64,000 nt of DNA from Phyllobates terribilis (taxonomy: Eukaryota), in NCBI RefSeq assembly GCF_046119375.1, contig NW_027362771.1, forward strand, positions 396,490,001 to 396,554,000, read 5' to 3'. The notes under the pieces are model-generated. The model was not told the origin of the DNA. It ran no database searches and saw only the letters and a list, made by a program, of their open reading frames with translations. Positions 13,459-56,763 of this stretch are shown piece by piece; within the stretch, counting starts at the first letter, position 1; each line of letters begins with the position of its first letter. A program made the position numbers and the translations under genes.

Positions 13459-13462
13459 AAGC

Positions 13463-17350: not shown

Positions 17351-17499
17351 GGCAGTGTCAGCTCTGGATGGGGCCCTGTCACACCTTTACATGGAATATT
17401 TCATACATATCTAATATATATGTTTGTCTTATTTTTATTTTTAGACAATTTAAAGCATATGTCTAACTAAGGGCAGCTTACACTGGTTGATTATTGAGA

Positions 17500-18570: not shown

Positions 18571-18666
18571 TATCGATGCAGAGGTTCCTGATGATGTTGG
18601 ACATCCGATCTTCTGCTCTTCTCTGCATGATCTTCTGGAAGCTCAGGTATGCAGCTTGCTCTGATA

Positions 18667-18696
18667 TTATTGAGCCGGTGTCTTGTTGAGGGTTTT
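18667..18696 (-). pseudogene. Candidate terminal coding exon of the kinase gene (KTLNKTPAQ*)
   Basis: TTTTCATTTGTCAACTAG acceptor followed by a short frame, downstream of the 20292 exon. The linking exon was not identified. Confidence 0.3.
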
Positions 18697-20291
18697 CTAG
18701 TTGACAAATGAAAACCCTCTGAACACGGTCTGGTCCTCTAGTGTTATAGATAATGTAGCCTCTGCCGCTTGGATCTTGTCAAGCTTAAAAGCATGGAACT
18801 TTGGTTTAGGCTTTGTTGGCTATAGAAAAGTTGCAGAAAAAAGTCATGGTGAAAATTGGTGACTAATTAAAATAGTCTTGACTTGAAGTATAGAAAAAAA
18901 ATTGCTCAATATTAAGGAACGTTTTGAAATGTAAATGTACTATTGTAGAGACAAAACCATCACAACAAGCATTGCAGCTCAAGTTTAGTCATTCAGTGCG
19001 ATTTATCCATTTACTTCCAGTTATTTGGGTATTTTGCTTGTCTTTGGTTTTTCTCTGTCTAGTGGCCTTATGTGAACATGCATTTACATTTTGCATGCAC
19101 ATCAATTTACGTTTCAGTTCAGACGTTTCAGGTTTCAGGTTTTTCCTTTGTAGTTTAGTGTGCTTTAGTGCATATAAGGCTGTGGCTGCCCTTTGTCTGA
19201 GCTGAAAGGTTCATTCTGCCTCTCAGGTCTATGTTTCTACTAGGGGTTCAGTCTCTCTGCCCTTATCCATATGTATGTCACTTGACAAATGGTAAGGTTT
19301 CAATATTAGAGTTAGGACTGTCCCATAAGGGTTACTGTGACGTGGTGGGATGGCTTTTACATTATTTTGATCAAAATTATGTTAACTAAATACCCTTTAT
19401 TAATTATCATTATTTTTGCACTGTGCGATTTATCCATTTACTTCCAGTTATTTGGGTATTTTGCTTGTCTTTGGTTTTTCTCTGTAAATGTAATATTGTA
19501 GAGACAAAACCAGCACAACAAGCATTGCAACTCAAGTTTAGTCACTTCAGTGAGCTGCAGTGCCACTAATTATCTCTATGTCCAATCATACTCCTGTCTC
19601 ATCATATATAGGATGCAGAATTATTTTCAGGTAATAGGCAATAGCTTAAGTATGGTTAGAATGAGAAGTTTTTAAATAAGTACAATCTGTACTTATATCA
19701 CTTCAACGCTGAACACTTTGATTTGTTAACAGACTCTTCCAAATTGGGACAGCTCCATCAGTTCTGTTTTTTGACAAAATTGGTTCATATTTGTTGTTTT
19801 ATTTTTCTTCTGGTCAAAATCAGAAATGGAGACTATAAAAAGGATAATTATTATTGAAAAATGCAAACTAATTTTCTTTAGATTCACTTCCATGTCTGCC
19901 TGAAAAATTCTCAAAACATTGTGGTCCTTATGGAGAACTCATTTCAAATTTTTGTAGCCAAGGATCTTCTCTATCTCCAGCTACAGATGCCTATGCAATT
20001 CTTTTGCCAGATTAAATGACTTGCACCTGACAGAACATATAACTAGTTAATTGTATGAGTATAGCCTGAAAAAGAGTCTGAAAGAAGTGCAATAATATAG
20101 ACTACACATGCAGCATTAATAAATTACATTTTCCAGCCCGATCGTCTATAATAGTAATGTAAACATTAACGTAGTCCAAATTATTTTCCAACCCTGACAT
20201 TAAACACAATGTATCACAGAGCCAAAAGCCTAGAAGATTGTGGGAGAGTATCTTATTCAGATCCATGTGACAATTCTGTACATATACTTAC

Positions 20292-20561
20292 TACATGGAT
20301 GTATGGTGGGGCCATCCTAAGGGCTTCCACTGAGACCCAATCAATTCGCTGGAAGAAGGGGTGTTCTCGGATGTTACCATTGACTCCTAATCTCTGGACA
20401 GGATCTTCCTGGAGGAGCTGTTCAATGATGTCCTTGGCACCGGAGGATGATTCATCAAAGAGTGAGGGATGGTAGTTACACTCACTGGTAAGCATTTCGT
20501 TTAAGATGACTCCAAACGAATACCAGTCTACTCCGGCGTTATACTCCTCCTTGTCCATGAT
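20292..20561 (-). pseudogene. PKC-delta-like kinase exon (subdomains IX-XI)
   Basis: CAG|ATC acceptor and GTA|GTAAGT donor, 270 nt, phase 0-0. Encodes IMDKEEYNAGVDWYSFGVILNEM...KDIIEQLLQEDPVQRLG...HPFFQRIDW. Confidence 0.9.
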
Positions 20562-20808
20562 CTGCCATAGAGAAGCATTATTAGTAGTGCTACCTCTTGT
20601 ATATCACCGTTCTTACATGTCACTCATATTGTTATGTGATTCTATATTGAATGACAGTAAGTCTTACTACTTAAGCAAGAGACAAAAAGGGTCTTTCATA
20701 ATTATGCTCCATAAATTAAATTAATAAATGATATGAAAAATCAGAATGAATGTAATATATACGATTGTGACAACGCTCAGCTCAGTGTGCTACCAGCTCA
20801 AACTTTAA

Positions 20809-21893
20809 CCCCTTCAAAATCGGGTGATTTTCAGTTTTTCCTCCCTTCTTACAAGAGCCATAACTTTTTTATTTTTCCATCCACATAACCGTATGAGGGC
20901 TTGTTTATTGCAGCATGAGCAGTAGTTTTGAATGACGCCATTCATTTTATCATGTGATGCACTTGAAAGTGGTAAAAAAATTCCAAGCATGTTAAAATTG
21001 CAAAAAAAGTGCAACTTTACAATTTTTGTTTTATTTACCATGTTAACTATATGGTAAATCTGACCTGGCAATATGATTATCCAGGTGAGTACAATTACGC
21101 AGATACCAAACACATGATGACATTTTTATTGATATCATTTTGAGGCAGATACAATGTTTTGATCACCTTTTATTGCATTTTATTACAATGTTGCGGCAGC
21201 CAAAAAAAATTAATTCTGGTGTTTTGATTTTTTCTTTGTTACGCCGTTTACTGATCAGATTAATTTTATATTTTGAGTGATCAGACTTTTACAAACACAG
21301 CAATACAGAGATACCACATATGTGTATTTTTATTTTTTTTTAATTGTTTTATTTTTAATGGGGCAAAGGGGGGGTGATTTGAACTTTTCTGTATTTTTTA
21401 GTTTCCTTATATTTTTAAAAACATTTTTTCTACTTTTTTTACTATATTTATCAGTTCCCTTAGGGGAATTGAAGCTTTGACTGTCTGACTGCTGATGCAC
21501 TGCTATGTATAGCTAAAATTACAATCTCCTATGAATGCCAGCTAAACGCTGGATTTCACAGGAGTACTGTCATGACAAGCACGGAGATCTTCAGCGACCC
21601 CCAAATGTCATGGTAACCCATCAGCACCCCATGATCATGTCAGGGGCGCACCGATGGGCATGTAGAAAAACGTGCCCCCACCCCCAGCGCATGTTAAATG
21701 CCACTGTCAGAGATTGACAGCGAGATCTAACATGTTAATGGCTGCAGGCGGAGTAGTGTTACACCAGCAGCTGTTAAAGATTAAATCAACCATCATCCGC
21801 AGGAAAAGATGCGGGCTCGGCGTGCGACCTCGCATCAAAGGCAGGGAGGGACATGACATATGACCGACATGTATGCCATATGTCATGAAGGGG
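20809..21893 (-). mobile_element. Non-autonomous TTAA-specific (piggyBac-like) element
   Basis: TTAA|CCCCTTCA...TGAAGGGG|TTAA. Its interior is the reverse complement of the element split at 40348/54304. Confidence 0.7.
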
Positions 21894-22275
21894 TTAAGGA
21901 GCTATCTGTAACATAGCTGATAGTATTGAGGTGGCGGCTTGTCTTGTCTTAAATACACAGAGCAGCTTAGTCCAATGTACTTGATATTTCAGATACTTGT
22001 TATCTAATAAATGTAATAAGTGCACATAAAATAATAGATTTTCCTGTATCATTTTTACACATGTTATTGCCACTTTAGGACATCTCTGGTCCGGATAACT
22101 CAGCATTACACCTGGTTGGTCATAGTTCACCATCCATGTAGACATGCAGGCTAGGAGGAATAGGAGACGATGCTCCTCCCATTTGATGATTGTGGGGCTC
22201 ACAGTAGTGAAGCACTCAGAGGTCACACATGTTTTCCCTGTTCTGTGGATGGGTGATATATTGATAATACTTTAA

Positions 22276-22447
22276 AGGGATTTCTAGTGCTCTAATATTG
22301 ATAACCAGAACAGGTCATCAATATAAGATTGGTGGGGGCCAACGCCCAGCAGTCCCATTGATTAACTGTTATTTCCTCTGCCAGTGGTTGGATATAACCA
22401 ATAAACAGACATCACAGCTCCATTCACTGGTTAGTGGCGGCTGCTGG
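22276..22447. mobile_element. Kolobok/T2-type MITE, right half missing (cut by LTR)
   Basis: TTAA|AGGG start. It shares GGTCATCAATAT..GATTGGTGGGG and TAGTGG..GCT..TGG with the copy at 34841 and stops at the LTR. Confidence 0.6.
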
Positions 22448-23467
22448 TGACGCGCCCCTGGGCCTGTGCTGAGTAGCGTTGCGCACGCGGGAGCCTACCC
22501 GGAGCCGGATCTGATAGGGGTAGTAGTCTCGTGGCGGTGACCCGGTCCGTGCCCAGGGAGTCAAGCTGAGTGGCAGTCTTTAGCAGAAGATGGTACGGTG
22601 TTCGACTACGCCACCCGTTGAATGCGGCTATGAAGCCGCCGCTGCAGGGCAGACCGCTGAGGCCGGTGGTAAGGTCGTGCAGCGTAGCTGGTAGAACCCC
22701 CAACGGGAGGGGTATGGCCTCAGGGCAACCGACGTGTTTGAAGGGGGTAGCAGGAACCACTCAGAGACGGTGCGGTGTAGTTCTGGGTCTTTACTGGTGA
22801 CAAAGTAGACCCTCCCGGAGTACTGGCTAGCGATCGGGGCCTTGTCAGTCCGTGAGCTGATGGGATCTCCCCTGGCCAGGCGGAGTTGTAGGCCTCCCCA
22901 ACTAATCGTACTCTTCTGGCTACCTTGCTAGAGGCGGGTAAAAGTAGCCCACGTCCCTGAGTGTATCGTGTGGTGCTCACCCGTATGGCCGGTGACTCGG
23001 GGCCTTCTGGTAGCTTCCGCTCCACGACGGCGGTGCTGGTCCCTTGCGTGTGACCGTGCCTTCGGGTTTCTGGGCCAGAGGACCTGAAATCCCCTGCCGG
23101 TCGGTTTCTGCTGCTGGGTAAGGATTAGTCCCCACAGCCTCGGACTCCGGGTCCGGTGAGAACTCTTCAATCAGGGCGAGCTCTACAGCTTCCAGCCCCT
23201 GACTCCTTTTAGCACTGCTCCCACTGAGCTCCTGATCTTTCTTTCCTTGCTTTTGCTACACTCCAGACCAGACTGTGTCTCTGTCTGGGACTCCTCTTCT
23301 TCTCCCTAACCCCGCCTCAGTCCTAGTTTTATATAGGGGAAGTTCTTCCCCTCCCAGGACTGGGCAGGAGGTGTGGCATGCATAGGATTCCTGACCAGGA
23401 GACCTCCCACCTGCTCTCAGACGTAATATTGCTATTACTGTGGAAACCAGACCCCTGGGGTGCCACA
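22448..23467 (-). repeat. 3' LTR of B (U3 type Y)
   Basis: TG...CA, adjacent to the PPT (minus ACTAGGGGGGAA). Confidence 0.93.
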
Positions 23468-23832
23468 TTCCCCCCTAGTAAAATTTAGTACTCCGGGACT
23501 AAACATATTTTTGTAAACATAACAAGTTATAAACAGAAACAGTACAATAAAGAAAAACACATTAGGATGGTCACGGCGTGTCCGCAACCGGGTGCAGTTT
23601 TTGAAGAAAACAAGGGTGTCCATTTCACCAAGGAACAGGGAGCCGTAACCAGGTAGGGGTCTGTCCTACCCCGAGTCTTTAACAGTCTTAGTCCTTTCCT
23701 GGGTTACGCTCCAAACATATATACAAAGGATTCCGGATAATCCATAACTGACACCTATAAAATAACTGGAAATACATAATTATTTACAAGCAACAATAAA
23801 CAGGTAAATACAAATAAAACAGTTTGAACACT

Positions 23833-26800
23833 TTAGATCCTCCAACGTACGGGCAACTGGCCTCTAGTGGCTCTAGTGGACCTACGGAGCTTACTGACTG
23901 GTCCTGAGCTACAAGATGTAGGAGCTGTCAAAAGTAAACTGGGCAGCTGTCTACGGGCTCTTTGGCTCACTAGGGGTACGGCAGGCTCACTATAAGCAGA
24001 GGGTTGATTCTCCTGGTCTGCTTGTGTGGGGTCTTCTGCCTCCTGGACCGGCTGCTCTTCCAGCTCTACCTGTTTCTCTGTAGGCACTCGGGATGCTGGT
24101 TGGAGGAAGGTGAGGACGGGTACCACAACCGCGCCATTTACCTGTGTCCAAGACCGAGGGAAGTCTCCGAGTACAGTACTGACCATCTCTTCCCTTTCCT
24201 CTGCGGGTCGAGGGTTTTCTTGATCTTCTTCAGGGTTTCGTAGCTGCTCGGGACACTTCTTCAGGTGATCTCGGGAGACAATGGCTGTGGTTTCTCCTCC
24301 GTCCTTACTGATTGTGCAGACTTTTGGGTTCTCATGGCTTGAGGGCAGTACGGTGTACGGGTCTTTCTCCCACTGGTCGTCCAACTTGTGGAGCCGTCTC
24401 TTCCTCTTCAAGACCTGCTCTCCAGGTACCAGGGGAACAGCGGGAGCATACTGGTTGTAAGCCTTCTCCTGTCTTTCTCTAGCTTGACAGAGACTTCGCT
24501 CAACGCTCTCCTGTACTTTCCGGTACTGCTGCTGCCTCTCTGTGTCCCAGTCTGCTTCTGGTGAAGTGTCCTCGGGTGTCAGGACTCCCATATCCAGATC
24601 AACAGGCAGTTTACCAGGTCTTGCTCTCATCAGGTAAGCCGGGGTACAGTTGGTAGAACCTACCGGGATGTGGTTGTATAGGTCCACCAGATCAGGCAGT
24701 TTCTCAGGCCACAGACTGCGTTCTTCCAGGGGCAATGTTTTCAGAAGGTCTATCACCACCTGGTTCATTTTCTCACAGAGTCCATTGGTTTGCGGATGAT
24801 AGGGTGTTGTTCTTATCTTCCGGCAGCCATACAGAGTGCAGAACTCCTGGAACACTTCCGCTTCAAAGGCAGGTCCTTGGTCCATCAGCACCTGCTCTGG
24901 GTATCCGTGTGGACGGCAGAAGTGCTGCTGGAAAGCTCTAGCTGCTGTTTGAGCCGTTAAGTCCTTGACCGGGACCACCACCAGGAACCGGGAGTAATGA
25001 TCTACGATTGTGAGGGCGTAGACATACCCAGATCTGCTTGGAGCCAGTTTCACATGGTCCAGGGCTACCAGTTCCAGTGGCTGTCGGGTGATGATGGGCT
25101 GCAAGGGAGTCTTCTGGCTGGCACGGTCCTTCCTTCTTAGGTGGCACGGTCCACAGTCTCTGCACCACCTCTCGATGGCTCCTCTCATGCCTACCCAGTG
25201 GAACCGCCCGCGCAGCAGGAACTCCAGCTTCTTCCATCCGAAGTGCCCAGCTCCGTCGTGGTATGCCTCCAGTACCATAGCCGCGTCTCTTCTTGGCACC
25301 ACTACTTGCCAGATCAGTTCATGCGTCCGGGAGTTAACCATTCTGCGGCACAACTTCCCCTTGTAAAGGAACAGTCGACTCTTCTCAGCCCACAGTTGCT
25401 TGGTCTCCTCCGGAGCGTCTGGGTCAAGGCGGGCATCTGGCTGAGTCAGCATCTCCTTCACCAGTCGGACGGCGGGGTCACTGTCTTGCGTTTCCGCCCA
25501 GTTGTAATGAGGTAAGGGGTTGAACGTAGCGGATTGCTTACCCCTTACACGGTGGGAATACTGGATAGTCCCATGACAGTGGAACGCGGGGAGTTCAACT
25601 TCTTCCAATTCCTCTGGATCTTCCCCTACGTCCGGTAGGTTTGGCATTCTGGACAGGGCATCCGCGTTGGTATTGGAGCGTCCTGCCCGGTATTTGATCG
25701 TGAACTCATAGTTGGACAGGCGGGCCATCCATCTCTGCTCCAGGGCACCGAGTCTTGCCGTATCCAGGTGTGTCAACGGGTTGTTATCCGTGTAGACGAT
25801 GAACCGGGAAGAGGCGAGGTAGTGCTTAAAGCGTTCGGTGACTGCCCACACCACTGCCAGGAATTCTAGCTTGAATGAGCTGTAATTCTCAGAGTTTCTT
25901 TCGGTGGGTCGCAGTTTTCGGCTGGCGTAAGCAATTACCCGTTCCTTCCCCTGCTGGATCTGGGACAGTACAGCTCCTAGCCCGATGTTACTTGCGTCGG
26001 TGTAGAGGATAAAGGGCTGGCTGTAATCAGGGTATGCCAGGATTTCATCCCCCGTGAGGGCCATCTTCAGCTGGCGGAAGGACTCTTCTTCCAACTTCTC
26101 CCATCTGAAGAGCGGCTTCTGGTTCTTGGCCTTCCTGGACTGGCCTATCAGGAGGTCCTGCATAGGAGCTGCCTTTTTGGTGAAACCGGGAATGAACCTT
26201 CGGTAGTAGCCTACCAACCCGAGGAACTGCTGCACTTCCTTTACGCTGGAGGGTCTTGGCCATTCCTTAATCGCGGTGATCTTATCAGGGTCGGGAGCCA
26301 CTCCGTCAGCACTCACCACGTGTCCCAGGTACTGCACCCTTGGTTTCAGGAGGTGACACTTGGAGGGTTTCACCTTTAGGCCGTAGTTTGCCAGGGCTTC
26401 GAACACTTCTGCCAGGTGTTTCAGGTGGTCCTCGTAGGTCTTGGAGTAGACGATGACATCGTCCAGGTATAACAGGACCGTCTCGAAGTTTCGGTGTCCC
26501 AGACAGCATTCCATCAACCGTTGGAAGGTTCCTGGTGCGTTGCAGAGTCCGAACGGCATGCAGGTAAACTCGCTAAGTCCCATCGGGGTGGTGAATGCGG
26601 TCTTCTCCCGGTCCGCCTCTGCTACAGGAACCTGCCAGTACCCGCTAGTGAGATCCAAAGTAGAGAAGAAGTTAGCAGATTTTAAAGCGGCCAAAGACTC
26701 CTCTATCCTTGGTAAGGGGTACGCATCTTTGTGTGTGATACGGTTGATTTTCCGGTAATCTACACACATTCTCATGGTGTTGTCTTTTTTTTTAACCAAG

Positions 26801-28899
26801 ACCAGTGGAGCTGCCCAGGGGCTACAGCTATCCCTGATTACCCCAGCCTCCTTCATGTCTCTAAGCATTCCCTTGGCGTGTTGGTAGTGTGCAGGGGGTA
26901 CGGGTCGGTATCTCTCCTTTATGGGAGGATGGTCTCCCGTGAGGATATGATGTTCTACCCCCTTTACTCGCCCGAAGTCTAACGGGTGTTTACTAAACAC
27001 TCTCTCGTACTCTTGAACCACCCGATAGACTCCCTGTTTCTGGTGTGAGGGAGTGGAGTCAGTACCCAAATGTAGTTGCTGACACCAGTCCTCTATTGTT
27101 TTCTTAGAGCCGTTACCTTCCTCTGGATGAGATGGAGGCAAGGGTTCCACGGACTGTACAGAATTTTGATTGATGGTATACAATTTGGCTAGCGTAGCAT
27201 ACCGGGGCAGGTACACTTCCCTTTTCCCGATGTTTATTATGCGAACGGGCACCCTCCCATGGCGTACATCAACCACCCCCCGTGCTGTCAAAATGGTGGG
27301 CCTACTTTCTGAGTAGACGGGTTCTACCATTGCTTGGTAGTCTCTACCTCTTAGACCAATAGCTGCCCGGCACCAAATCATCATTTCACTTTTTGGGGGT
27401 ATGGCAATAGGGAAAGGGTCACACATTCTCACGCTTCCAATCTCACCACCGGAGAGTTCCACCTGTTGCCGCCGCATCAGTGCCCGGATCTCTTTTTGGA
27501 GCACTCGCTGTTGGCCGGAGCTGGCGTTCTTGGCAACCTGCTGTAAAATAAGAATCACCTCTGCAAGACAATTTTCAATCACATTAGTTCCTAGAGTTAT
27601 CTTTGGGTGACTCTCGCGCTTGTCAATGTCTACAATGATCAGTCCCTGTGCTGCCAGTTCGACTCTACCGACTTTAATGGTCATCTCTTTGAATCCGATC
27701 TGTGGCACGGGTTGACCATTGCTGGCGATGATACTCAAGTCGTCGTCAGGGTAGCGGGTTATATCCGAGTCATTCCAGTACTGCTTAAAGAGCACGTACG
27801 GGATGGTGGTGACCTGTGACCCGGTGTCAAGTAGGGCACTCATAGGAATGCCATCCAGTACTACAGGCAAGACTGGACGTCCTCCCACGTATTTGTCACG
27901 CCAGTTCGATGGGCCTGGTGATCTTATTCCTAGGGGTTGGCCCTCTACCCCAGGTTGTGACAGTTTAAAGGACAGTACCTTGCCATATGTCCGGGTTGAT
28001 TGCAGCGGCGGCAGATGGGTTGTCCGTCCTCGTTGTATCGGTCGCTGGGTCTTCCTCTGGTCGGTGGGGTCCTCCGGTCCGGATGCCAGCTGGATCTTCC
28101 CTGGAGCAGCAACCTGTAAAGACTGCACAGTTCGGGTTAGCGCAGCTACGCTTTTAGCTAGCTCTTGGACCTGATGGTGCAGGTCTGGAGCCTGGTCATT
28201 GTTCAAAGCCTGCGCATCAGCTCCCACAGGCCCTGCCGACAAGGGCGCCGCCTCCTGGTGGTAAGCGGTAGTAGGGTGCCTGTGGGCCACAACGCCACCC
28301 GGTGCCGGTTCTCGGAGAACCCGAATGGCTCTGTCCTTGAACTGTGCAAAGTCCAGATGAGGATCCTGTAAGGCCATTGCCCGCAACTGGGTTCGGTGGG
28401 CATTGCAATATAGTCCCTCTATAAATTGTTCGGTCAACAGCCTGTCCTCGTTTCCCACGCCGTCAAGGTCGACCTGCTTAATGGCTCTCAGGGCCTCTTG
28501 TAGGTTTAGTGCATAGTCCCTTATATTCTCATGTGCTCGCTGTTTGCACCCGTAGAATCTAAGCTTAATCTCAGCTGAGGTGCGGGTATCAAAGGTGTCC
28601 TTCAGCCGGGCTAATATCCCTGCTACAGTCCTCCTCCCAGGTGGCCAGGACTTTACCTCCCTTTGGGCTACCCCGGTTAGTTGGGCCACCAGGATGCTCA
28701 CTTTTTGCTCTTCTGTGAGGGGGTACACCTGGAAGAGGCTATCCAGCTTTTCTCTAAAGTCATTCAGGGTATGTGACTCCCCTGAGTACTGGGGTAGCCA
28801 GGCTGCCCCCGGGATATAGGGCATCGTGAAAGGCATGACCGCTGCAGCGGTGGCGCTGGCGGTGGCTGTGGCAGTGAAGCTCTCCTCCGTATCCGACAT
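23833..28899 (-). CDS. gag-pol: Gag-Pol fusion ORF, 1688 aa (Gag, PR, RT, RH, IN); nucleocapsid knuckle out of frame
   Basis: Motifs LLDTG, YLDD, LYTDAS, HHCC and the integrase core. CRRCNQPGHMARYC is encoded at 27972-28013 in a different frame. Confidence 0.9.
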   Translation of the reverse strand: MSDTEESFTATATASATAAAVMPFTMPYIPGAAWLPQYSGESHTLNDFREKLDSLFQVYPLTEEQKVSILVAQLTGVAQREVKSWPPGRRTVAGILARLKDTFDTRTSAEIKLRFYGCKQRAHENIRDYALNLQEALRAIKQVDLDGVGNEDRLLTEQFIEGLYCNAHRTQLRAMALQDPHLDFAQFKDRAIRVLREPAPGGVVAHRHPTTAYHQEAAPLSAGPVGADAQALNNDQAPDLHHQVQELAKSVAALTRTVQSLQVAAPGKIQLASGPEDPTDQRKTQRPIQRGRTTHLPPLQSTRTYGKVLSFKLSQPGVEGQPLGIRSPGPSNWRDKYVGGRPVLPVVLDGIPMSALLDTGSQVTTIPYVLFKQYWNDSDITRYPDDDLSIIASNGQPVPQIGFKEMTIKVGRVELAAQGLIIVDIDKRESHPKITLGTNVIENCLAEVILILQQVAKNASSGQQRVLQKEIRALMRRQQVELSGGEIGSVRMCDPFPIAIPPKSEMMIWCRAAIGLRGRDYQAMVEPVYSESRPTILTARGVVDVRHGRVPVRIINIGKREVYLPRYATLAKLYTINQNSVQSVEPLPPSHPEEGNGSKKTIEDWCQQLHLGTDSTPSHQKQGVYRVVQEYERVFSKHPLDFGRVKGVEHHILTGDHPPIKERYRPVPPAHYQHAKGMLRDMKEAGVIRDSCSPWAAPLVLVKKKDNTMRMCVDYRKINRITHKDAYPLPRIEESLAALKSANFFSTLDLTSGYWQVPVAEADREKTAFTTPMGLSEFTCMPFGLCNAPGTFQRLMECCLGHRNFETVLLYLDDVIVYSKTYEDHLKHLAEVFEALANYGLKVKPSKCHLLKPRVQYLGHVVSADGVAPDPDKITAIKEWPRPSSVKEVQQFLGLVGYYRRFIPGFTKKAAPMQDLLIGQSRKAKNQKPLFRWEKLEEESFRQLKMALTGDEILAYPDYSQPFILYTDASNIGLGAVLSQIQQGKERVIAYASRKLRPTERNSENYSSFKLEFLAVVWAVTERFKHYLASSRFIVYTDNNPLTHLDTARLGALEQRWMARLSNYEFTIKYRAGRSNTNADALSRMPNLPDVGEDPEELEEVELPAFHCHGTIQYSHRVRGKQSATFNPLPHYNWAETQDSDPAVRLVKEMLTQPDARLDPDAPEETKQLWAEKSRLFLYKGKLCRRMVNSRTHELIWQVVVPRRDAAMVLEAYHDGAGHFGWKKLEFLLRGRFHWVGMRGAIERWCRDCGPCHLRRKDRASQKTPLQPIITRQPLELVALDHVKLAPSRSGYVYALTIVDHYSRFLVVVPVKDLTAQTAARAFQQHFCRPHGYPEQVLMDQGPAFEAEVFQEFCTLYGCRKIRTTPYHPQTNGLCEKMNQVVIDLLKTLPLEERSLWPEKLPDLVDLYNHIPVGSTNCTPAYLMRARPGKLPVDLDMGVLTPEDTSPEADWDTERQQQYRKVQESVERSLCQARERQEKAYNQYAPAVPLVPGEQVLKRKRRLHKLDDQWEKDPYTVLPSSHENPKVCTISKDGGETTAIVSRDHLKKCPEQLRNPEEDQENPRPAEEREEMVSTVLGDFPRSWTQVNGAVVVPVLTFLQPASRVPTEKQVELEEQPVQEAEDPTQADQENQPSAYSEPAVPLVSQRARRQLPSLLLTAPTSCSSGPVSKLRRSTRATRGQLPVRWRI
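27929..27969 (-). promoter_or_regulatory. -1 frameshift signal of B (T TTA AAC, 8-nt spacer, stem)
   Basis: Same geometry as in C. The stem is CCTGGGG/CCCTAGG with one G-U pair. Confidence 0.8.
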
Positions 28900-29316
28900 C
28901 CTCCTCCCCCCTAGTGGACCGTGGCCTACCTTGCGATGATCCTCTTCCGTAGGCCGCGGCTCCGCAGTGGATCGTCAGGGTCGAGGACCTTCCGTCGCGC
29001 TCCTGTGACGTCGGCGTCTGCTGGGCTCCTTCCAGGACCTTACGCAACGTCCGGACATGAGGCGGAGCTCCAGTTCTCGCGCGCTTTCGGAGTCCACGCC
29101 CCACTTCTTCCCGCGCGGCGTCTTCAAGATGGCGTCCAACGGCGGGAAAACTCCACGGATGGCGGGAAGAAGGCAGAAGATGGCGTCGGATGGCGGGAAA
29201 ACTCCACGGATGGCGGGAAGGAAGCAGAAGATGGCGCCGGATGGCGGGAATCTTCACCACAGGTAAGTTTGAACAGTCTTTTTCAGGCACGCAGTACCCG
29301 GTGGTTGCGGGCACGA

Positions 29317-29335
29317 AATCCTGCCGACTACGCCA
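29317..29335 (-). promoter_or_regulatory. Primer-binding site, tRNA-Ser
   Basis: TGGCGTAGTCGGCAGGATT, 5 nt from the LTR end. Confidence 0.88.
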
Positions 29336-29340
29336 AAAGT

Positions 29341-30402
29341 TGACGCGCCCCTGGGCCTGTGTCGTGCTGCGTTGCGCACGCGGGAGCTTACCCGGAGCCG
29401 GATCTCTTTAGGGTTGTAGTCTCGTGGCGGTGATCCGGTCCGTGCCCAGGGAGTCAGACTAAGTGGTGCTGTATTAGCGGTAGATGTTGGACGACTACGC
29501 CACCCGTTGAGTACAGCTAAGGAGCTGCTGCTGCAGGGCAGACCGCTGAGGCCGGTGGTAGGATTGTGCAGCGTGATAGTATAACCCCCAACGGGAGGGG
29601 TATGGCCTCAGGGCAGCCGACGTGGATGATGGGGGTAGCAGGAACCACTCGGAGACGGTACGGTGTAGTTCAGGGTTTTTACTGGTGACAAAGATAGACC
29701 CTCCCGGAGTACTGGCTAGCGATTGGGGCCTGGTCAGTCCTTGAGCAGATGGGATCTCCCCTGGCCAGGCGGAGTTGTAGGCCTCCCAAACTAACGATAC
29801 TCTTCCGGCTACCTTGCTAGAGGCGGGTATAAGTAGCCCACGTCCCTGAGTGTACCGTGTGGTGCTCACCCGTATGGCCGGTGACTCGGGGCCTTCTAGT
29901 AGCTTCCGCTCCACGACGGCGGTGCTGGTCCCACGCGTGTGACCGTGCCTTCGGGTTTCTGGGCCAGAGGACCTGCAATCCCCTGCCGGTCGGTTTCTGC
30001 TGCTGGATAGGAGTTAGTCCCCACAGCCTCGGACTCCGGGTCCGGTAAGAAATCTTCTCAGTCAGGGCGAGCTCTGCAGCTGCCAGCCCCTGACTCCTTG
30101 TAACACTGCTCCCACAGAGCTCCTGTTGTTTCTTCCTATGCTGCTTCTCTTCTCTACTTCTAGCATGGCCCAGGAGCTGGGCCCAGCCGGAGCCACAGCT
30201 CCCTGTCAGCCCTCCTGGCTGCACTCTCCCTCTGAACTCTCTAACCCTGCCTCAGCCCCAGGTTTATATAGGGGAAGTTCTTCCCCTCCCAGGACTGGGC
30301 AGGAGGTGTGGCATGCATAGGATTCCTGACCAAGAGACCTCCCACCTGCTCTCAGACATAACATTGCTGTTACTGTGGAAACCAGACCCCTGGGGTGCCA
30401 CA
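29341..30402 (-). repeat. 5' LTR of B (U3 type Y)
   Basis: TG...CA, adjacent to the PBS. Confidence 0.93.
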
Positions 30403-31036
30403 ATACCATATAGGACTTATAGACACCAGCTACAGGGCATCAGTCTGCAGGTCGCCAGGGTGGAGGGACTGAGTGCAGCTAAGCTTTAAAGGGGTTTTCC
30501 CATGAATAAAAGTTAATTTAATCAATACATTTTAGAATAATAATAATTTTCACAATTGGATGTGATTAAATAAAATGTTCCTGTGCTTATCAGCAAATGA
30601 TTATTTCTTTGAAGTAAAACATTGTTTAAAAAAAAACAGGCTGAGTGTGATCTGACAAAACATCGGATATCACTGGAACCAATATTATTTTATGGGCTCG
30701 GGTACATGTCCGATTTTTTTCCTTGGACCAATTGCAGAATGCCCAAGTTGGATCCAATGAACGGATCACACTCGGCCATGCAAGTCAATGAGTCCATGGA
30801 AAACATCGGACGGCACTCAGATGACAACCGAGTGCAGGCCGATTTCCACAGACTGACAGAATGGAAAAGATGGAGTCATTTTTTTTTCCATCTTCTCCAC
30901 ATCAGAAAAAATTGGATCACACTATGATCAAATTCTTTTCAGAGTTTAATCAAAATGTGATTTGTATAATCGTCTGGATTCTCTTAGATGAGAGAATATA
31001 CGCTGGTGTGACTCAGCTTCACACGGACTACATTAC

Positions 31037-31099
31037 CTGTGGATGATGCCCTTAGAATGGAGGAACTGGATCCCACACACTAGTTCGGCGGCATAGAAT
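31037..31099 (-). pseudogene. Kinase exon (subdomain VIa to the start of HRD)
   Basis: ATCAG|A...CACAG|GTAATG, 63 nt, phase 2-2. Encodes (R)FYAAELVCGIQFLHSKGIIH(R). Confidence 0.92.
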
Positions 31100-31454
31100 C
31101 TGATAAAGAGAAAATGAATAAGTATCAGATCCCAAAGTTGGTAAACTTGGGAATTCATATTAGTCAATAGGAGCATTATTCTATATTATTCACTCTATGT
31201 GACTGCCGAATCGTGAAGGTGTAAACAGCTCACAATGTCAATATTGCAGCCTCGAGAATGCACGTATGCAAATTACATACTTATGATTATATGCCGACTA
31301 TACTCCTGCACGTCTCTCAATTCTCTCCTATTTGAAGAAGCCGGGTGAGACTAGTCGGCATGTGATCACAAATATGAAAATTGTACCTGTAATTACAGGA
31401 TCACCCACCTGAACGGGGTATACAGGGAAATATTGACCGTGTGCGTGTTGCATA

Positions 31455-32499
31455 TGACTCGCCCCCTGGGCCTGTGCTGGGGAACCCGGAACCGGGCCTG
31501 TTGTAGGATGCTGGGGGTTGTAGTCTCAGTGTGGCGGCGACCCGGTCCGTGGCTCAGGGTGGTCAAACCAGTGGCAGTCTTAGGTAATAACAATGTCCGA
31601 ATACGCCACCCGTGGATTGCGGTCAGTGGGGACCGCCGCTGCGCTGCAGACCGCTGAGGCTGATGTTGTTTGCACAGCCGAGTATGGGATAACTCCCCAT
31701 GGGAGAAGTATTGCCTCAGGGCAGCTAATGTGAGAGATGATGGGAGTGATGGTTTGAGCGTCCCAGTGCTAATGGTGCTGGTGCGGCAAGGAATCACAGA
31801 GACGTGTGGTGCAGTTCAGGGTCTTTACTGATGGTATAAGCAGACCCTCCCGGGAGTACTGGCTAGTATAAGGGCCTGGTCAGTCTGCGAGCAAGCAGGA
31901 GTTCCCCTGGGCAGGTGGAGTTGTAGGCCTCCCCGTTTATCTGCACTCTTCCTGGCTACCTTGCTGTAAGCAGTTACAAGTAGCCCACGTCCCTAAGTAT
32001 ACCGTGTGGTGCTCACCCGTATGGCTGGTGACTTGGGGCCTTCTGTTAGCCTCCGCTCCTGGATGGCAGCGCTGGTCCCTTCTTTGTGACTGAGCCTCCG
32101 GGCTTCTATGGCCAGAGGACCTGGAATCACCTGCCGGCTGGTTTCTGCTGCTGGGTATATATCAGTCCCCACAGCCTCGGACTCCTGTGTCCGGTTTTAG
32201 TGTCCTCGGCCAGGGCGAGCTATATCTCTGCTCACAGCCCCTGGTCTTCTGCTTCTGCTCCTCAGAGCTCCTGTTCTCACTTTCCCTGTGTCTGCTGTCC
32301 TCCAGACCAGACTGTGTCTCTGTCTGGGACTTCACTCCCTAATCCCGCCCCAGACCCAGTTTATAAGGGCAGATTCCTCCCCTCCCAGGTCTGGGTGGGC
32401 CGTGTTGCATGCTTAGGGCTCCTGACCAGAGAAACCTCCCACTTGCTCTCAGACATAATATTTCTATTACTGTGGCAACCAGACCCCTGGGGTGCCACA
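31455..32499 (-). mobile_element. Solo LTR, chimeric (X-like U5 side, Y-type U3 side)
   Basis: TG...CA with 4-bp TSD CATA (31451-31454 / 32500-32503). Confidence 0.92.
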
Positions 32500-32581
32500 C
32501 ATACTTTCACAATTTGTCAGTCTGCAGTCACATAGACCGCTGATTTTTCTTCTGAGACTGGACACTCCTTTAACACATTAC

Positions 32582-32673
32582 CTGGCACTGGTGATGTCAA
32601 GCGGCCCCTTCCTGTGCTGAAGTTGGTAAAAGTCCCCGCAGCTCATGTATTCCATACCAAGAAAAACATTCAT
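32582..32673 (-). pseudogene. Kinase exon (hinge, subdomain V)
   Basis: TTACAG|ATG...GCCAG|GTAATG, 92 nt, phase 0-2. Encodes MNVFLGMEYMSCGDFYQLQHRKGPLDITSA(R). Confidence 0.92.
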
Positions 32674-33449
32674 CTGTAACATGGAACATTAGCATTTATT
32701 ATACAGTAAAGACAAATACACATTTCAATACTTGAAGGGGTTTTCCATCCAAGAAAGTTAAAGCATATTGGTAAGATATGTAGTCACTCAATACAAAAGG
32801 TGGCCTAACTGCTGTGACCCCTAACATTCTAAACAATGATATCTAATATATAAATACATTTAGAAATTCTTGTTTCAGCCAATGTTTGGTAATTATTTTT
32901 CTTTTAATTATAGACATAGGCCCAGATTCATAATTTGAATATTTTTAATCACTTTCCTTTTTGGTCTTGTGGTATTTGTTGCTGACTTTTGGTGCCAAAT
33001 TCTTCAAAATGGCGCACACAATTCAAGAATTTGGTACAAAGTAAAAAATGCTCGTTTTCTGCCTTGAAGTGTTTTTGCAACTTTTTGGCCCCAAAAATCA
33101 CACATTTTCGAATAGGTCCCAAAATATGGCAAAAAAACCGGCATACTCAAAAAATACGCCAAAGCGGATTGAAATTAAGACTGCGTCATATTTGCAACTT
33201 AAAAAAATCACAATTGATGAATCAGGTGAAAACATCTGGAATCACTAAACTCTGCCCACAAAGTGAAAAAAAAGCAGACAAGCTCATACAAAATAGACTT
33301 CAAAAAAGGCGCAAATAGAGTAATGAATTGGGTGCAAATAAAAAAAAGGCAAAAACACACAAAACCAGACAAAAAAACAGACGTAAAGGCAATGATGAAT
33401 CAAAGCCTTAATCTTATCTCTCTGCTTTGTTTGGGCTGCCATACAGTAA

Positions 33450-35075: not shown

Positions 35076-35350
35076 CTTGGTCTGGAATCCAAAGTCCGCG
35101 TGGACGAGGAAGGGGCTTCCAGATGCCAGCTGAAGAACTCGCCTCTCCACCATGACATCCAGCCTATCACCTCCGGCTAGCAGGGCTCTTTTGCTGATGA
35201 TCTTAACAGCAAATTCTTGATGAGTTAAAGTATCTTCCGCCATCAGGACCTTTCCAAAGCTTCCGAAGCCGAGCACATGGTGGAATAATAATCTCTCCTT
35301 GATGGAATGAGAGATTGTGCCGGAGCTGAATGGCCGAACACCACTGCATC
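35076..35350 (-). pseudogene. Kinase exon (Gly-rich loop, VAIK lysine, alphaC)
   Basis: GATAG|GA...AAG|GTAGAA, 275 nt, phase 1-0. Encodes LGFGSFGKVLMAED...FAVKIISK...VERRVLQLASGSPFLVHADFGFQTK. Confidence 0.93.
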
Positions 35351-41945: not shown

Positions 41946-43333
41946 TTTATATGAATCAATGGGCATATTTGTCAGATGTCATATCTTGTATATATATCCG
42001 CATTCAAGTATGTACAATATTATATTGCTGCCTTGCTGAGCTTTATTCACATTTTGGACTCAAGATACTCTCCTAGTCTTACATTGCATATTGTTTGCAT
42101 ACCCTGCAGACCTCGTTTTTATGTAGTTACAGTGGATGATTTATTTATATATATATTTCTAATCCCGTTACTATCATACTAGCCCTGTGCTCTCCCTCTC
42201 TATTGGTGTTCAGGGACTTTTAGGGATAGACGACTTGTGAGTGGGGGCGCCATTGTCGTACAAATTCTAGGGTGCCAACCCCTGCGGTCAGGAATGGTCA
42301 CCCTAGAGGACAATAGAAGATGACTAGTTCCAGTAGTATCATTGATATGTTATTATATTTATTCATTCCCGCTATTATCATATTACAGGTTGACGAACCT
42401 TCTGTTCCCATCCTGTACTTGCTCACCAAGGTCCATAGGAGTCTATAAGACCCTTGTCTCAGTCAATGGGCGTCTATCTGAACCAATTTCTAGATTCTTG
42501 TATTACTATCTAATACCAGTTGCTATGGAACTTCCACCTTTCATCAAAAACTGCGGAAATTTTACAGAGATTGGATAATATTCATGTTGGTTTAGATATT
42601 TTTCTCATTACATGTGATGTAGAACCATTATATACTTGAATTTCACATGAATATGGATTATCCGCTACTAGGTTTTTTTCTATCAGGCTGGGGTTTGGAT
42701 GAATCTCTTGTGTATTTTCTTATGATTCTTTTTGAATATGTAGCGTCAGCGTCTCTGCCTCCTGCTGGGCAGAGATGTCGATCCCCTCACCTCCGCGGTC
42801 CCGGTCCGACGTCCTCCGGCTCCCCTCCTGCGTCAGCCCGGGGTGCACGCACCGCGCACAGTTCCCCGGGCACTGTGCTCAGGGCGCACATGCACTCCTT
42901 CCCTCTTAAAGGGGCCGTGCGCGCCGTCCTAAAGAGTCCCCGGTCAATGGCCGGAGGACTTCCCCTATATAAGGCACCTCCTCCAAAATGGAGGTGCCTG
43001 TGCAAGATTGTTGTTTGTGTGCTTACACTCTCCTCAGTCCTCAGGTCCCAGTGCCCGCCAGCCTGTCTATCAGCTGTGCCTGCATGTCTGTCTACCGGCT
43101 GTGCTCATCTGCTGTGCCTGTCAGCTTCAGCCATCAGTCCCGTGGGAGTCGCCTGCTCTCACAATGTCGGTCCCAGAGTGGCACCTGGTTCATCTTCCCG
43201 GTCCCTCCTTGGTTCACGAAGTCGACTAAGCCACCATGTGGCCAGGGTTGGTCCGGGTATGCACTTAGTTATTCCCCTCTCGTCCCTCCTTGCATCACAG
43301 CATAGAGGTTCCACCACCTGGATACGTAACAGT

Positions 43334-43343
43334 TTGCACAGGC
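43334..43343 (+). promoter_or_regulatory. Self-priming PBS (complementary to the element's own predicted mRNA 5' end)
   Basis: TTGCACAGGC is the exact reverse complement of GCCTGTGCAA (42996-43005), which lies 30 nt after the TATA start (42966). Confidence 0.85.
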
Positions 43344-43344
43344 C

Positions 43345-46300
43345 ATGGAATCCGGTGGCTCCCAGGCTCCTTCGCTCTCAGACCTGTACTAAGAGGTCTC
43401 TCGCCAGAGATCCCAACAGGATACTATCATGTCCTATCTGCTGACAGTCAACTCCCGCCAGGACGTGCTGTCCACCCCGACTGTGTCCTCCTCTAACCAA
43501 GCAACCCTGTGGCGCTGTGGCACCCAGCTTAGGACCCCGGCTATCTGCTCCTCCATGTTTCGGTGGTGACCCTGCCCTATGTCGGGGCTTCATAAATCAG
43601 TGCACGCTGCACTTTGAGGCTCTGGTGTCCACTTTTTGGGAGGGCCTTTCCGGATGGAGCAAGGATGAGCTAGCCGGTCATGACATACCTCCCTCTCTAG
43701 ACGACCTGGTGTCATTAGCTACCCAAATTGACATCCGTTTTCAGGAGCGTTCTAAGGAGACGACCTGGGAGAGAAGACCCCTGCGTCTCGCACCAACCTT
43801 CCAAAGGCCAGTCTCGCAACCAGCATTCCACCCGGTGTCCTCTCCAGAGTCTATGCAAATAGACCAAGTTAAGATGGTCAAGTCTCGCCAGGAGATCCGC
43901 CGTGCCGAGGGGAGTTGCTTCTACTGTGGCAGTATAGAGCATCAAATCTGCTCCTGTCTGGTGAGACCGGGAAACTCCAGTGTCTAGGACCGCTTGGAGA
44001 GGTCGCCCTAGGCAAAAGTTCTTCCTCTCCGCCCTTGACTCTGTCTGTCTCAGTTACCAGTGATAAGACCCGCTTCTTTGAGACTGCCTATCTGGATTCC
44101 AGAGCCGCTGGGAATCTCATTCAACAAGCCGTTGTGAAGCGTTATCAGATTCCTACCATACGTCTGGATGATTCTTTAGCGGTTTCCTCTGAGGATGGAA
44201 AGCTTCTCTCTGAGACCATCTTGTTTGTCACTGAGCCTGTAACCCTTCAGGTGAGAATGCTACATTCGGAGAAGATCTCCTTTTACGTGCTGTCCGGCCT
44301 CTCTCATCCCCTCTTGCTTGGCCTGCCTTGGTTATAGAGACATGAGCTCGTCCTGAATTGGAGCTCGGGTGAGGTGCTCCATTGGGTTCAGGAATGTCAT
44401 AAGTCTTGTCTGGTTCCGGTTCGTCTTGCTCGACCTCCGTCTATCCCAGCTAACCTACCTGGCCTGCCGGCACCCTACTGGTCATATCAGGACGACTTTG
44501 ATAAAAAGGAGGCAGAGACACTACCACCTCATAGGCCGTATGATTTCCCCATCGACCTAACACCTGGTGCTTCACCTCCTTGCGGGCGAATCTACCCCTT
44601 GTCGCTGGCCGAGACCTGTGCTATGTCTGAATACATAGAGGAGAATCTTGCTAGGGGATTTATCCAGAAATCCACCTCTCCGGCTGGAGCAGGATTCTTC
44701 TTCGTCAAGAAGAAAGACGGCTCTCTTCGTCCATGCATCGACTATAGGGGTCTAAACCAGATTACCATAAAAAATAAGTACCCCCTGCCTCTCATCTCAG
44801 AGCTGTTTGACCGCCTAAAAGGCGCGAAGATCTTCACTAAGCTCGATCTTCTTGGGGCGTACAATCTGGTCCGGATTCGCCAGGGAGACGAGTGGAAGAC
44901 GACATTCAACACTCGGGATGGTCAGTACGAATTCCGCGTAATGCCCTTCGGTCTCTGTAATGCTCCAGCTGTCTTCCAGGAGTTAGTAAACGACATCTTC
45001 CGAGATCTCCTGTATTCCTGCGTGGTGGTGTACCTGGACGATATCTTGGTGTTCTCCCCTGATCTGCCCTCTCACCGGAGGGATGTTCATCAGGTACTAC
45101 TGCGGCTTTGGAAGAATTGCCTGTATGTTAAGTACGAGAAGTGCCTCTTTGAGCAGACCTCCCTACCATTTCTGGGATATATCATCTCTGAGACCGGACT
45201 GTGAATGGATCTCGAGAAGGTGTCTGCCATCTTAAAGTGGCCCCGACCCGAGGGGTTGAAGGCTATTCAGCGGTTTCTGGCATTCACTAACTATTACCTC
45301 CTCTTCATTCCTCATTTCTCCTCCCGGACTGCTCCCATCTCAGCTCTCACCCGTAAAGGAGCAGATCCCAGGGAATGGACTTCTGAGGCGGAAAATGCCT
45401 TTGTTTCTCTTAAGCAAGCCTTCTCCTCCGCACCAGTGCTACATCGTCCTGATTGCAATAAACAGTTCTTCCTGGAGGTTGATGCCTCTTCCTCCAGAGC
45501 CGGAGCAGTGCTCACCTAGAAATCCTCGTCCGGGCGAATGGTGACCTGCGGCTTCTTCTCCAAACTCTTTTCTTTGTCCGAGCGCAATTACTCCATTGGA
45601 GATCAAGAACTGCTGGCTATCAAATTAGCGCTGGAGGAGTGGCGTTACTTGCTTGAAGGGGCTCTGCACTCGGTGGTCATCTACACTGACCATAAAAACC
45701 TCGCTTACTTTCAGACCGCCCAAAGACTAAATCTGCGTCAGGCCAGATGGTCTTTGTTCTTTGCTCTTTTTTGCTTCTCTCTCTATTACCGCCCAGCAGT
45801 CAAGAATATTAAAGCTGACGCTCTATCCAGCTCTTTTCTGTCTACCGACTAAGAGGAGGAGCCTCTACACATCATTGACCCCTCCAGAATAATGACTGTT
45901 GCTCCGTTTGACCTGTCTCATCTACCTCATGGTAAGACCTTTGTAGCGGCTCAAGATCGCAAGAGGGTCTTACTCTCGGGTCATTCGTCCAAACTGGCTG
46001 GTCATGCCGGCCAGAGCAAGACGCTTCTGCTCATTGCCCGACATTATTGGTAGCCCACCCTGCGCAAGGATGTTGCGGATTTTGTCGCGGCTTGTTCCTC
46101 TTGTGCCCGTAACAAGATACCTAGGCACCTTCCAGCTGGTCATCTTCTTCCTCTTCCCGTGCCTTCTGCTCCTTGGCAACACATTGCGATGGACTTCATC
46201 ACTGATCTCCCGGTATCTTGCGGTTCTACCGTCAGTTGGGTGGTCTCTGACCGCTTCTCCAAGATGACTCACTTCATCCCTTTGCCTGGTCTTCTGTCTG

Positions 46301-47220
46301 CACCTGTGCTTGCTAAGGACTTTATCCATCACATCTTTCGTCTCCACGGCTTACCCCTCCACATTGTCTTGTACCGAAGAGTTCAGTTCACTTCTCGCTT
46401 CTGGAGAGCCACGTGCAAGCTGCTGGATGTCTCTTTGGACTTTTCTTCGGCCTATCATTCTCAGTCCAATGGTCAAGTGGAGCGTATTAATCAGATCCTT
46501 ACCAGTTTTCTTCGGCATTTTGTCAAAGCTCACCATAGCGATTGGGTAGAACTCCTGCCTTGGGCCGAGTTTTCTTATAACAACCATGTGAGTGAGTCCT
46601 CTGCTATGTCTCCTTTTTTTGTGTTTTACGGCCGACACCCCCGAATTCCTTTTCTCGTCTCCTCTTCAGTGGACAATACTGCCACGGAGTCTCTTGTCAG
46701 TGAATTTTCGGTGATTTGGGAAGACACTAGATCTGCGCTTCTTCAGTCCTCCGAGCAGATGAAGAAGCATGCTGATAAGAGACGTCTGGAACTGCCTCTA
46801 TTTCGTCCGGGAAACAAGGTCTGGCTTTCCTCCAAATATGTCCGCCTCAAGATACCATCATACAAGTTGGGTCCACGGTTTATCGATCCTTTAGAGATTC
46901 TGGGCCAAATAAATCCAGTGGTGTATTAGCTAAAACTCCCTGCCTCCTTACGGATTCCCAATTCCTTTCACGTGTCTCTCCTCAAGCCTGTTGTCCTTAA
47001 TCGTTTATCTGACTATCCAGGTACCACGCCAGCTCTAGTCTCCGCTGAGGACGTCTTTGAAGTAGAGAACATTTTGGCCATCAAGAGGGTAAGAGGAAAG
47101 ACTTTCTTTCTTGTGGATTGGAAGGGGTTTGGTCCTGAGGAGAGGTCTTGGGAGCCCAGGGAGAACATTCATGCCCCTCGTCTTCTAGAAAAATTTCTTG
47201 AGGGCCTAAAGAAGAGGGGC
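43345..47220 (+). pseudogene. gag-pol pseudogene of D with C-terminal chromodomain
   Basis: ORF pieces 43517-47403 with multiple stops. Protease motif DSG is mutated to DSR. Chromodomain FEVENIL...FLVDWKGFGPEERSWEP. Confidence 0.92.
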
Positions 47221-48283
47221 ATAAAGGGGGGGTACTGCCGGGCAGAGACGTCGATCCCCTCACCGCCGCGGTCCCAGTCCGGCGTCCTCCGGCTCCCCCC
47301 CAGCGTCTGCCCGGGCACTGTGCTAAGGTTCCCTGGGCACTGTGCTAAGGTTGCGCGCGCGCGCACTCCCTCCCTCTTAAAGGGGCCGCGCACGCCGTCC
47401 TAAAGAGTCCCCGGGCAATTTCCGGAGTACTTCCCCTATATAAGGCACCTCCTCCAAAATGGAGGTGCCTGTGCAAGATTGTTGTTTGTGTGCTAACACT
47501 CTCCTCAGTCCTCAGGTCCCAGTGCCCGTCAGCCTGTCTATCAGCCGTGCCCGCCTGTCTACCGGCCGTGCTCATCCGCTGTGCCTGTCAGCTTCAGCCA
47601 TCAGTCCCATGGGAGTCGCCTGCTCTCACAAGGTCGGTCCCAGAGTGCCACCTGGTTCACCTTCCCGGTCCCTCCTTGGTTCACGGAGTCGACTAAGCCT
47701 CTGTGTGGCCAGGGTCGGTCCGGGTAGGCACTTAGTTACGCCCCTCTGATCCCTCCTTGCATCACAGCACAGAGGTTCCACCACCCAGATCCGTAACAGA
47801 ATACATTTTGTTACATAATAATTTTGCGTTCAAAGATCGATACTACCTACAGAAGAAAGAGGTGGCAATGGCCGCGGCTTGGGCCCCATCTTACGCCAAT
47901 CTCTCCTTGGGATTTTGGGAGTGTGAATACATCCGATTCCAGAACATTGAACATACGTCATTGGGATCAGAGATATCTTGGATGAGATTCATAGACAATG
48001 TGTTGTTTATTTTGCAGGGCTCCCATGAGGAACTTGAAAAATTCTTAAAATATCTCAATGACAATGCATTGAATATTAAGCTAACCCATCATATTGATCA
48101 AAAGAAAATTGATTTTCTGGATTTGGATATTCATGTTGATGACCATGGACAGTTGCATACAAATATTTATCGCAAGAATACTAGTGCCAATGCTTTCTTG
48201 CATGCCAAATCAGTCATCTGGCACATGTAATACAGGCAATGCCGTCTGGACAATTTATTAGGGCACATTGTATTTGTATCATC

Positions 48284-56303: not shown

Positions 56304-56763
56304 CTGAGCCTCCCACGTCTTCTTTCTTCTGGCTATTGGCCTGTATTGATGGTGTCTTTCCTTCCTCTGAACAGTCCAGGCTGATTCTTCTGTTCTTCGG
56401 TAATTTTCTCTGGACAATGATGTCTTCATCTGCTTGCGCCATCTCTGGGGTGGGAGACATCTTCCGTCCTGAGTCTGGTTTCTTCCTCTTTTTTCCCTTC
56501 CTTTGGGGCTTTTTGATAGAAGACTTCTCATCAGCCGATGAGCCCAAATGTCTTCTGTTCTTCAATCCTTCACTCTGGGCAATGACGTCCTCATCCACTT
56601 GCTCCATCTCTGGGGTGGGAGACATCTTTCGTCCCGAGTCTGTTTTTTTACCCTTTCTTCCTCTCCATTTGGGTTTTTTGATTGAAGACTCCTCATCAGC
56701 CGATGAGTCCAAGTGTCTTCTTTATCTCTCTTTCTTCTTCCCTACAATCTCCTCTTTTTCCAT
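56304..56763 (-). pseudogene. Probable first coding exon of the kinase (Lys/Arg/Glu-rich, 55-aa duplication, premature TAA at codon 14)
   Basis: ATG at 56763 and in-frame TAA at 56722-56724. The 165-bp unit is duplicated. The TCAG|GTAAAA donor is phase 1, compatible with the phase-1 exon at 35350. Its link to the kinase is inferred from phase, strand and position. Confidence 0.65.

Follow-up and report, generated by a model that had tools for sequence, protein, structure and literature searches.

An open-frame Ty3/Gypsy element without a target-site duplication, probably a hybrid of two insertions, at the place of the catalytic exon of a poison-frog PKC-delta-like gene copy

Full-length LTR retrotransposons that lack a target-site duplication (TSD) form a named class in plants, where these "intact elements without TSDs" (InT) are ascribed to inter-element unequal recombination (PMC4668562, PMC7251063), i.e., to recombination of two neighbouring elements of the same family (PMC4668562). 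In pear, for example, 578 of 7,247 elements (8.0%) are of this kind, as are 123 of 1,914 Gypsy elements (PMC4668562). Deletions of the human Yq12 and 3q13 regions have been traced to HERV-mediated non-allelic homologous recombination (PMC4195946), a deletion between Inga LTRs at the wheat locus 5B2 was read as inter-element recombination (PMC7156093), and recombination or conversion has been given as the cause of over-diverged LTRs in young chimpanzee ERVs (PMC1779541). In poison frogs, Ty3 elements are numerous and have been active recently (PMC12822217; 10.1101/2023.11.06.565769), and the word "recombination" occurs 0 times in the accessible text of the second of these sources. Our survey of titles and abstract openings, outside subscription journals and supplements, returned no literature on the locus described here or on such an exon loss in a frog; a survey of titles and abstract openings likewise returned none on the frog kinase family concerned, for which supplements might hold family counts, and the accessible text of PMC13696840 mentions PKC delta twice.

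We analyzed a 64,000-nt stretch of the Phyllobates terribilis genome (contig NW_027362771.1; hereafter the window), in which a Ty3/Gypsy element, B, spans 22448-30402 on the minus strand, at the place of exon 5 of a kinase gene copy (Table 1). Like the plant InT class, whose defining structure it shares, B has two complete LTRs, a primer-binding site, a polypurine tract and an internal region, and no TSD. Unlike that class, it lies in a frog, a host coding exon would mark the lost interval, and its LTRs belong to two lineages 10.5% apart; the comparison is made from the product alone. The human deletions resemble our reading of B in that LTR elements of one family flank host genes, recombine and delete, but those cases concern ERVs with reciprocal products and sequenced breakpoints (PMC4195946), whereas B is a Ty3/Gypsy element with one product and an unmapped breakpoint, in a gene that is probably redundant. 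The wheat 5B2 deletion, whose two breakpoints lie in LTRs of the same orientation, is similar to our reading of B as an inter-element recombination; there, however, both genomes were compared and PCR-validated loci were described (PMC7156093), while B is known from the deleted copy alone.

Table 1. Coordinates of the kinase exons, of element B and of the neighbouring features within the window.
Feature	Position	Strand	Description
Kinase exon 7	18697..18819	-	C-terminal tail, stop codon included
Kinase exon 6	20292..20561	-	Subdomains IX-XI; 89% to P0003; phase-0 acceptor
TTAA-type MITE, first half	22276..22447	.	Cut at B's edge; ends CTGG
B 3' LTR	22448..23467	-	1020 nt; shares its U3 type with element A and the solo LTR at 31455
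B polypurine tract	23468..23476	-	
B gag-pol frame	23833..28974	-	Single open frame; 1713 codons stop to stop, 1688 from first Met
B primer-binding site	29318..29335	-	TGG..., 18 nt; presumably of tRNA-Ser type
B 5' LTR	29341..30402	-	1062 nt; U3 segment about 42 nt longer than, and unlike, that of the 3' LTR
Intron remnant	30403..31036	.	634 nt between exon 4 and B; starts ATAC; partly small repeats; without exon 5
Kinase exon 4	31037..31099	-	Subdomain VIa, 21 codons; tblastn E 1e-8; ends GIIH plus 2 nt; phase-2 donor
Solo LTR of B's family	31455..32499	-	TSD CATA; positive control
Kinase exon 3	32582..32673	-	Subdomain V; tblastn and splice sites
Kinase exon 2	35076..35350	-	Subdomains I-IV (GFGSFG, AVK, E of helix C); 88% to P0003; AG/GT sites
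LTR element D, unrelated family (control)	42739..47798	+	Intron 1; perfect 5-bp TSD GAATA
Kinase exon 1	56304..56763	-	Basic N-terminal region; tblastn 70% to P0003; GT donor

The kinase copy is encoded on the minus strand and is PKC-delta-like, of the type found in dendrobatid frogs, with six exons present and canonical AG acceptors and GT donors. Using exon 6 as a query, we recovered 61 proteins among 88 candidates, nearly all of them annotated "protein kinase C delta type-like" and from frogs, the nearest being Ranitomeya and Phyllobates proteins at 85-89%. The exons are 75-89% identical, each for each, to the Ranitomeya protein P0003, with exon order conserved, and in these respects the copy matches the anuran family; it differs from that family, whose function is predicted, in being without subdomains VIb-VIII and in carrying an early stop. 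The 5' and 3' exons share one nearest paralog, exon 2 as well as full-length exon 6 matching P0003 best, a result by which near-identical copies are not separable. Incomplete models occur elsewhere in the family (P0011 is without exon 4, and P0056 and P0057 are without halves of exon 6), and 6 of the 61 relatives bear the label LOW QUALITY PROTEIN. A metagenome scan with P0003 gave 30 loci from 125 candidate stretches; their identity did not exceed 43%, and none was a frog locus. Directly after the last exon of the copy lies a 10-bp AT-rich array (17400-18660); a 30-bp tandem array is present at 51560-52090, and a 151-bp tandem array leads into a 22-bp satellite, over 4 kb in length, at 58750-64000.

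The first-pass annotation had placed a break in this kinase between ...GIIH (31037) and IMDKEEY (20561) and had seen no catalytic exon in the non-TE sequence between the two. Both splice sites and tblastn bear out the break: the exon 4 donor reads ...GIIH-AG/GTAATG (the slash marking the splice site), and the exon 6 acceptor reads ...GCAG/ATC ATG. The alignment with P0003 halts at residue 289 (HR) and restarts at 336, leaving out 46 residues (DLKPEN...DYG...APE), i.e., a lost exon 5 of 139 nt and 46 codons encoding VIb-VIII, a segment that every one of the 61 relatives retains (recognized by a pattern in 59 and by eye in P0052 and P0060). Close relatives read DYG rather than DFG, and it is therefore a profile search and not a motif that decides whether the exon is absent. 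The tBLASTn of subdomains VIb-VIII that had been suggested, which we ran permissively with query segments from 53 of the 61 (those that a pattern could cut), found no such exon, its best E value being 0.059 across the whole window and 0.57 within 20567-31037, and a whole-protein search recovered all six other exons at E values of 1e-8 to 1e-58 (P0003 rows). An exon 5 hidden or decayed inside the interval is ruled out by this search (E 0.57, against 1e-8 for exon 4). Exon 5 is gone, not degraded.

With exon 4 spliced directly to exon 6, the phases clash (2 against 0) and the shifted frame meets a stop 11 codons later, so that this kinase copy is null. The HRDxKxxN, D[FY]G and APE motifs required of a functional AGC/PKC-delta-like kinase are missing as a set, and the exons present do not form an open frame, being interrupted by this phase clash and by a TAA within the frame of exon 1, at codon 14 (56724-56722), which the earlier annotation had overlooked. 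Met codons after the TAA (MSPTPEM) stay in frame, and the relative P0007 is annotated from one such downstream Met; a downstream start could bypass the TAA, which is no proof that the gene died earlier. At otherwise invariant columns the copy has 4 private residues out of 271, and since this falls inside the range of close paralogs (0-7 in nine of them, and 19 in the tenth and most distant), it shows no sign of long decay. The gene that was hit is probably redundant, with close intact paralogs and many intact relatives.

Analysis of B itself identified the Pfam domains RVT_1 (727-886), RT_RNaseH (958-1089), Integrase_H2C2 (1226-1282) and rve (1298-1394) in its open frame. Both this order of reverse transcriptase, RNase H and integrase, and the direct LTRs with TG...CA ends accompanied by a primer-binding site and a polypurine tract, are those of Ty3/Gypsy elements; a DIRS-like element, which would be TSD-less by nature, is ruled out by the rve integrase and the direct LTRs. 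The LTR termini are complete to the base on both sides, and alignment of the LTR boundaries upheld the mismatched flanks reported earlier, CTGG and ATAC agreeing at 0 of 4 positions, so that B does not carry the TSD of a single intact insertion. The perfect 4-bp TSDs noted at two related solo LTRs were likewise found in both (CATA/CATA at the control in Table 1 and GTTC/GTTC at a second solo LTR, 2118-3324), i.e., 2 of 2 solo LTRs give a 4-bp TSD for the family. The earlier description of LTRs of unequal length (1020 versus 1062 bp) with many substitutions and yet an open reading frame also holds: the pair aligns with 914 matches and 99 mismatches (55 transitions, 44 transversions, 14 CpG transitions; K2P 0.105) beside the 1713 open codons. 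These mismatches are scattered over the full LTR, with a longest identical run of 70 nt, and the U3 block differs outright between the two. For each LTR of B, the closest match in the window is its partner (88.6%, against 73-79%), and perfect identity at their inner ends extends over only 21 and 33 nt.

The two LTRs of an element are made identical at integration by reverse transcription, and the diverged LTRs of B must therefore have been brought together afterwards, or by the assembler. We simulated random substitution at 5.25% per LTR, the divergence that ageing would need, with substitutions only, which is conservative. Not one of 1500 simulations left 1688 codons open (mean 10 stops), while at 1% substitution the frame stayed open in 212 of 1500. 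The control element D has an LTR K2P of 0.092 and 6 stops in 1122 codons of its pol frame, and 24 of its 48 LTR mismatches are CpG transitions, a share that differs from B's 14 of 99 (Fisher p 7e-6). In B, LTR divergence is not matched by internal decay (K2P 0.105, 0 stops). Comparison of B with element A gave a dN/dS of 0.13 over 954 codons, as expected if their differences arose between active lineages. B is not an aged single insertion.

The MITE to the left of B aligns with the first part of a copy near 34850-35050, over 31 nt with 90% identity (E 1e-6) and more weakly further on, and the alignment reaches ...CTGG in the one and ...TTGG in the other, after which the copy near 34850-35050 reads TACTGCAG. 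Comparison of B's right flank with the second half of the MITE gave no match (score 15, reached by 167 of 300 shuffles), in agreement with the earlier statement that the MITE is cut on the left and is not resumed on the right.

Among 23 public runs listed, none contains half of the window's sequence words, and no RNA run is on record as carrying it. We also compared contigs of four of these runs with positions 18660-32800 at 92% likeness; three of the four (X1, X4 and X7, from three samples) are DNA by our guess and the fourth (X9) is RNA by our guess. Intron contigs match the window at about 96-98%, and because these 2-4% are fixed differences in all 4 of 4 runs, the flank contigs represent close paralogs or relatives and not this copy. 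The solo LTR at 31455 served as a positive control, and its empty site (a joint from 31450 to 32500, with 4 letters that fit both sides) was present in 3 of 3 DNA runs and in 0 of 1 RNA-guess run. A corresponding empty-site joint for B, from 22447 to 30403, was absent among the 15 joints listed of 474 (beyond the rows listed lie 459 joints, 5998 loose ends and 258428 pieces); exon-to-exon joints were absent among the same 15 of 474, which has no bearing on splicing. No contig or read among those listed spans B or either of its junctions. The left intron is mostly covered by listed contigs, unbroken up to B's edge, and a separate deletion may have occurred in the 634-nt right flank, since only 30653-30786 is covered there by a listed contig. 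One X9 contig of 682 nt (record 28) follows 21911-22448 with 19 differences before it leaves the window sequence at B's edge; the match halts on B's first base, T, just as it would if the contig went on with TAC. For the final 143 letters of this contig, no second piece is among those listed (two pieces are listed for record 25). This course fits a loss of host DNA at B. Contig depth to the left of B is 435-514 in X1, 220-327 in X4 and 123-190 in X7, and the few figures to the right of it are somewhat lower, at 261, 173-176 and 114, respectively, a difference that could hint at two paralog groups, depth here being no copy number. In the last intron of the gene, a 553-nt high-copy insertion with about 70 nt duplicated at its ends (18978-19530) is absent from X9 record 25.

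The window is rich in transposons and contains further copies of B's family, which differ by 9-22%. Two truncated Gypsy copies, A (plus strand) and C (minus strand), face each other at 4366-14504, downstream of the kinase, and are cut at 4366 and near 9750, respectively; A is inverted relative to B and 5'-truncated. A further LTR, which belongs to the wider family of B, lies at 48969-50260; it still carries a polypurine tract and, about 15 nt on, abuts a fragment of a Tc1 transposase, which marks it as a truncated element and not a solo LTR. B (24935-25199) and A (about 5866-6130) share a perfect 265-nt integrase tract amid 82-90% identity, which shows that copies of the family hold tracts long enough to pair and does not mark a breakpoint. 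Sliding identity of B to A and C showed mosaic tracts with no single switch point, and the LTRs of the family are mosaic as well.

B is probably a hybrid, formed when two insertions that belong to a single Ty3/Gypsy family recombined. Recombination between Gypsy insertions had been proposed in the first-pass annotation, and it is supported by the exclusion of ageing, by the missing empty site among the joints listed and by the loss of the exon. What can be seen directly is that the exon is absent, that there is no TSD, that the LTRs are of two lineages, that the frame is open and that the MITE is cut; from the sequence of this product we infer the parents, the crossover and the position of exon 5 inside the lost piece. 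The parents would have been two young, separate insertions in the same orientation, one of them in intron 4, 634 nt downstream of kinase exon 4 and with the outer flank ATAC, and the other in intron 5, 1886 nt upstream of exon 6, inside the MITE and with the outer flank CTGG. In their ectopic homologous recombination, the first insertion would have contributed the surviving 5' LTR and the second the surviving 3' LTR, while the interval between them, with the remainder of the MITE, intron sequence and the catalytic exon of 139 nt, would have been lost. The crossover probably lay in the internal region, which is the likelier place because the inner LTR ends share only 21-33 nt of perfect identity. 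That both parents sat in one gene copy has a little less than an even chance; their having sat in two near-identical paralogs of an array is less likely, and conceivable because near-identical paralogs exist.

Several other explanations were weighed. It is quite improbable that B is an assembly artefact. In that case the assembler would have merged two genuine B-like insertions, located in a single gene or in two paralogs, by way of their near-identical internal regions, and exon 5 would be missing from the assembly only. Such a misassembly predicts an identical picture, with no TSD and two LTR types, and the setting is one of a multi-copy gene in a repeat-rich genome, where the depth of B's family in the DNA runs is about a million versus hundreds in the introns, and where no listed contig spans B. 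However, a window without N and an error-free 5.1-kb frame suggest accurate long reads, the internal region to be bridged is only 5.9 kb, and a misjoin between family copies as different as those in the window would need an unusually close pair.

A single insertion would demand that a whole LTR was replaced by gene conversion from another subfamily and that the flank and exon 5 were lost separately, by aberrant integration or by an end-joining deletion that ended exactly at the LTR terminus. LTR-LTR conversion is common in plants (PMC7251063) and was offered beside recombination for the over-diverged chimpanzee ERV LTRs (PMC1779541), and B's family is mosaic, but the two or three events needed, the mismatches all along the LTR (which, with a longest identical run of 70 nt, imply replacement of the entire LTR) and the completeness of both LTR ends to the base leave this course of events very improbable.

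There is only a slim chance that B is recombinant and that exon 5 nevertheless disappeared in a deletion unconnected with it, from a gene that had died before, so that B's position would be a coincidence. The independent nonsense codon (codon 14), several insertions that are absent from relatives and the broken models in the family (P0011, P0056, P0057) would suit such a history; the left intron followed mostly unbroken to B's edge by listed contigs, the low number of private residues (4 of 271), with no sign of long decay, and the one deletion that is needed at B anyway all speak against it. Finally, that point mutation eroded the LTRs and the TSD of a single old insertion has an almost negligible probability, since the closeness of B's LTRs to each other within the window is outweighed by 0 of 1500 simulations keeping the frame open, by mismatches that are CpG-poor and transversion-rich, unlike those of control D, by flanks that match at 0 of 4 positions and by a right flank that does not continue the MITE.

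With a hybrid origin of B as the preferred reading, the mechanism is one known from plants and humans, and the locus is a new instance of it with low biological consequence. As a single case it carries little weight, being one copy, with a second lesion too, of a family with many relatives; its value is that of a clean worked example from an amphibian in which a host exon marks the lost interval. Dating by LTR pairs without a TSD check would age this young hybrid at about 21 million years (our own arithmetic, from the K2P of 0.105 and a rate of 2.5e-9; 10.1101/2023.11.06.565769), and the locus suggests a cheap genome-wide count of TSD-less full-length Ty3 elements in poison-frog assemblies. 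The front part of the gene at B may stem from one paralog and its back part from another. It is doubtful, and we regard it as a long shot, that in this very abundant and mosaic poison-frog Gypsy family copies with 10%-different LTRs recombine via perfect tracts of a few hundred bases that they share, routinely deleting and fusing members of an expanded kinase array and creating new full-length combinations of LTR and ORF. If such hybrids are common, LTR-pair dates in these frogs would be biased old, and ectopic recombination would remove more DNA from giant amphibian genomes than counts of solo LTRs suggest.
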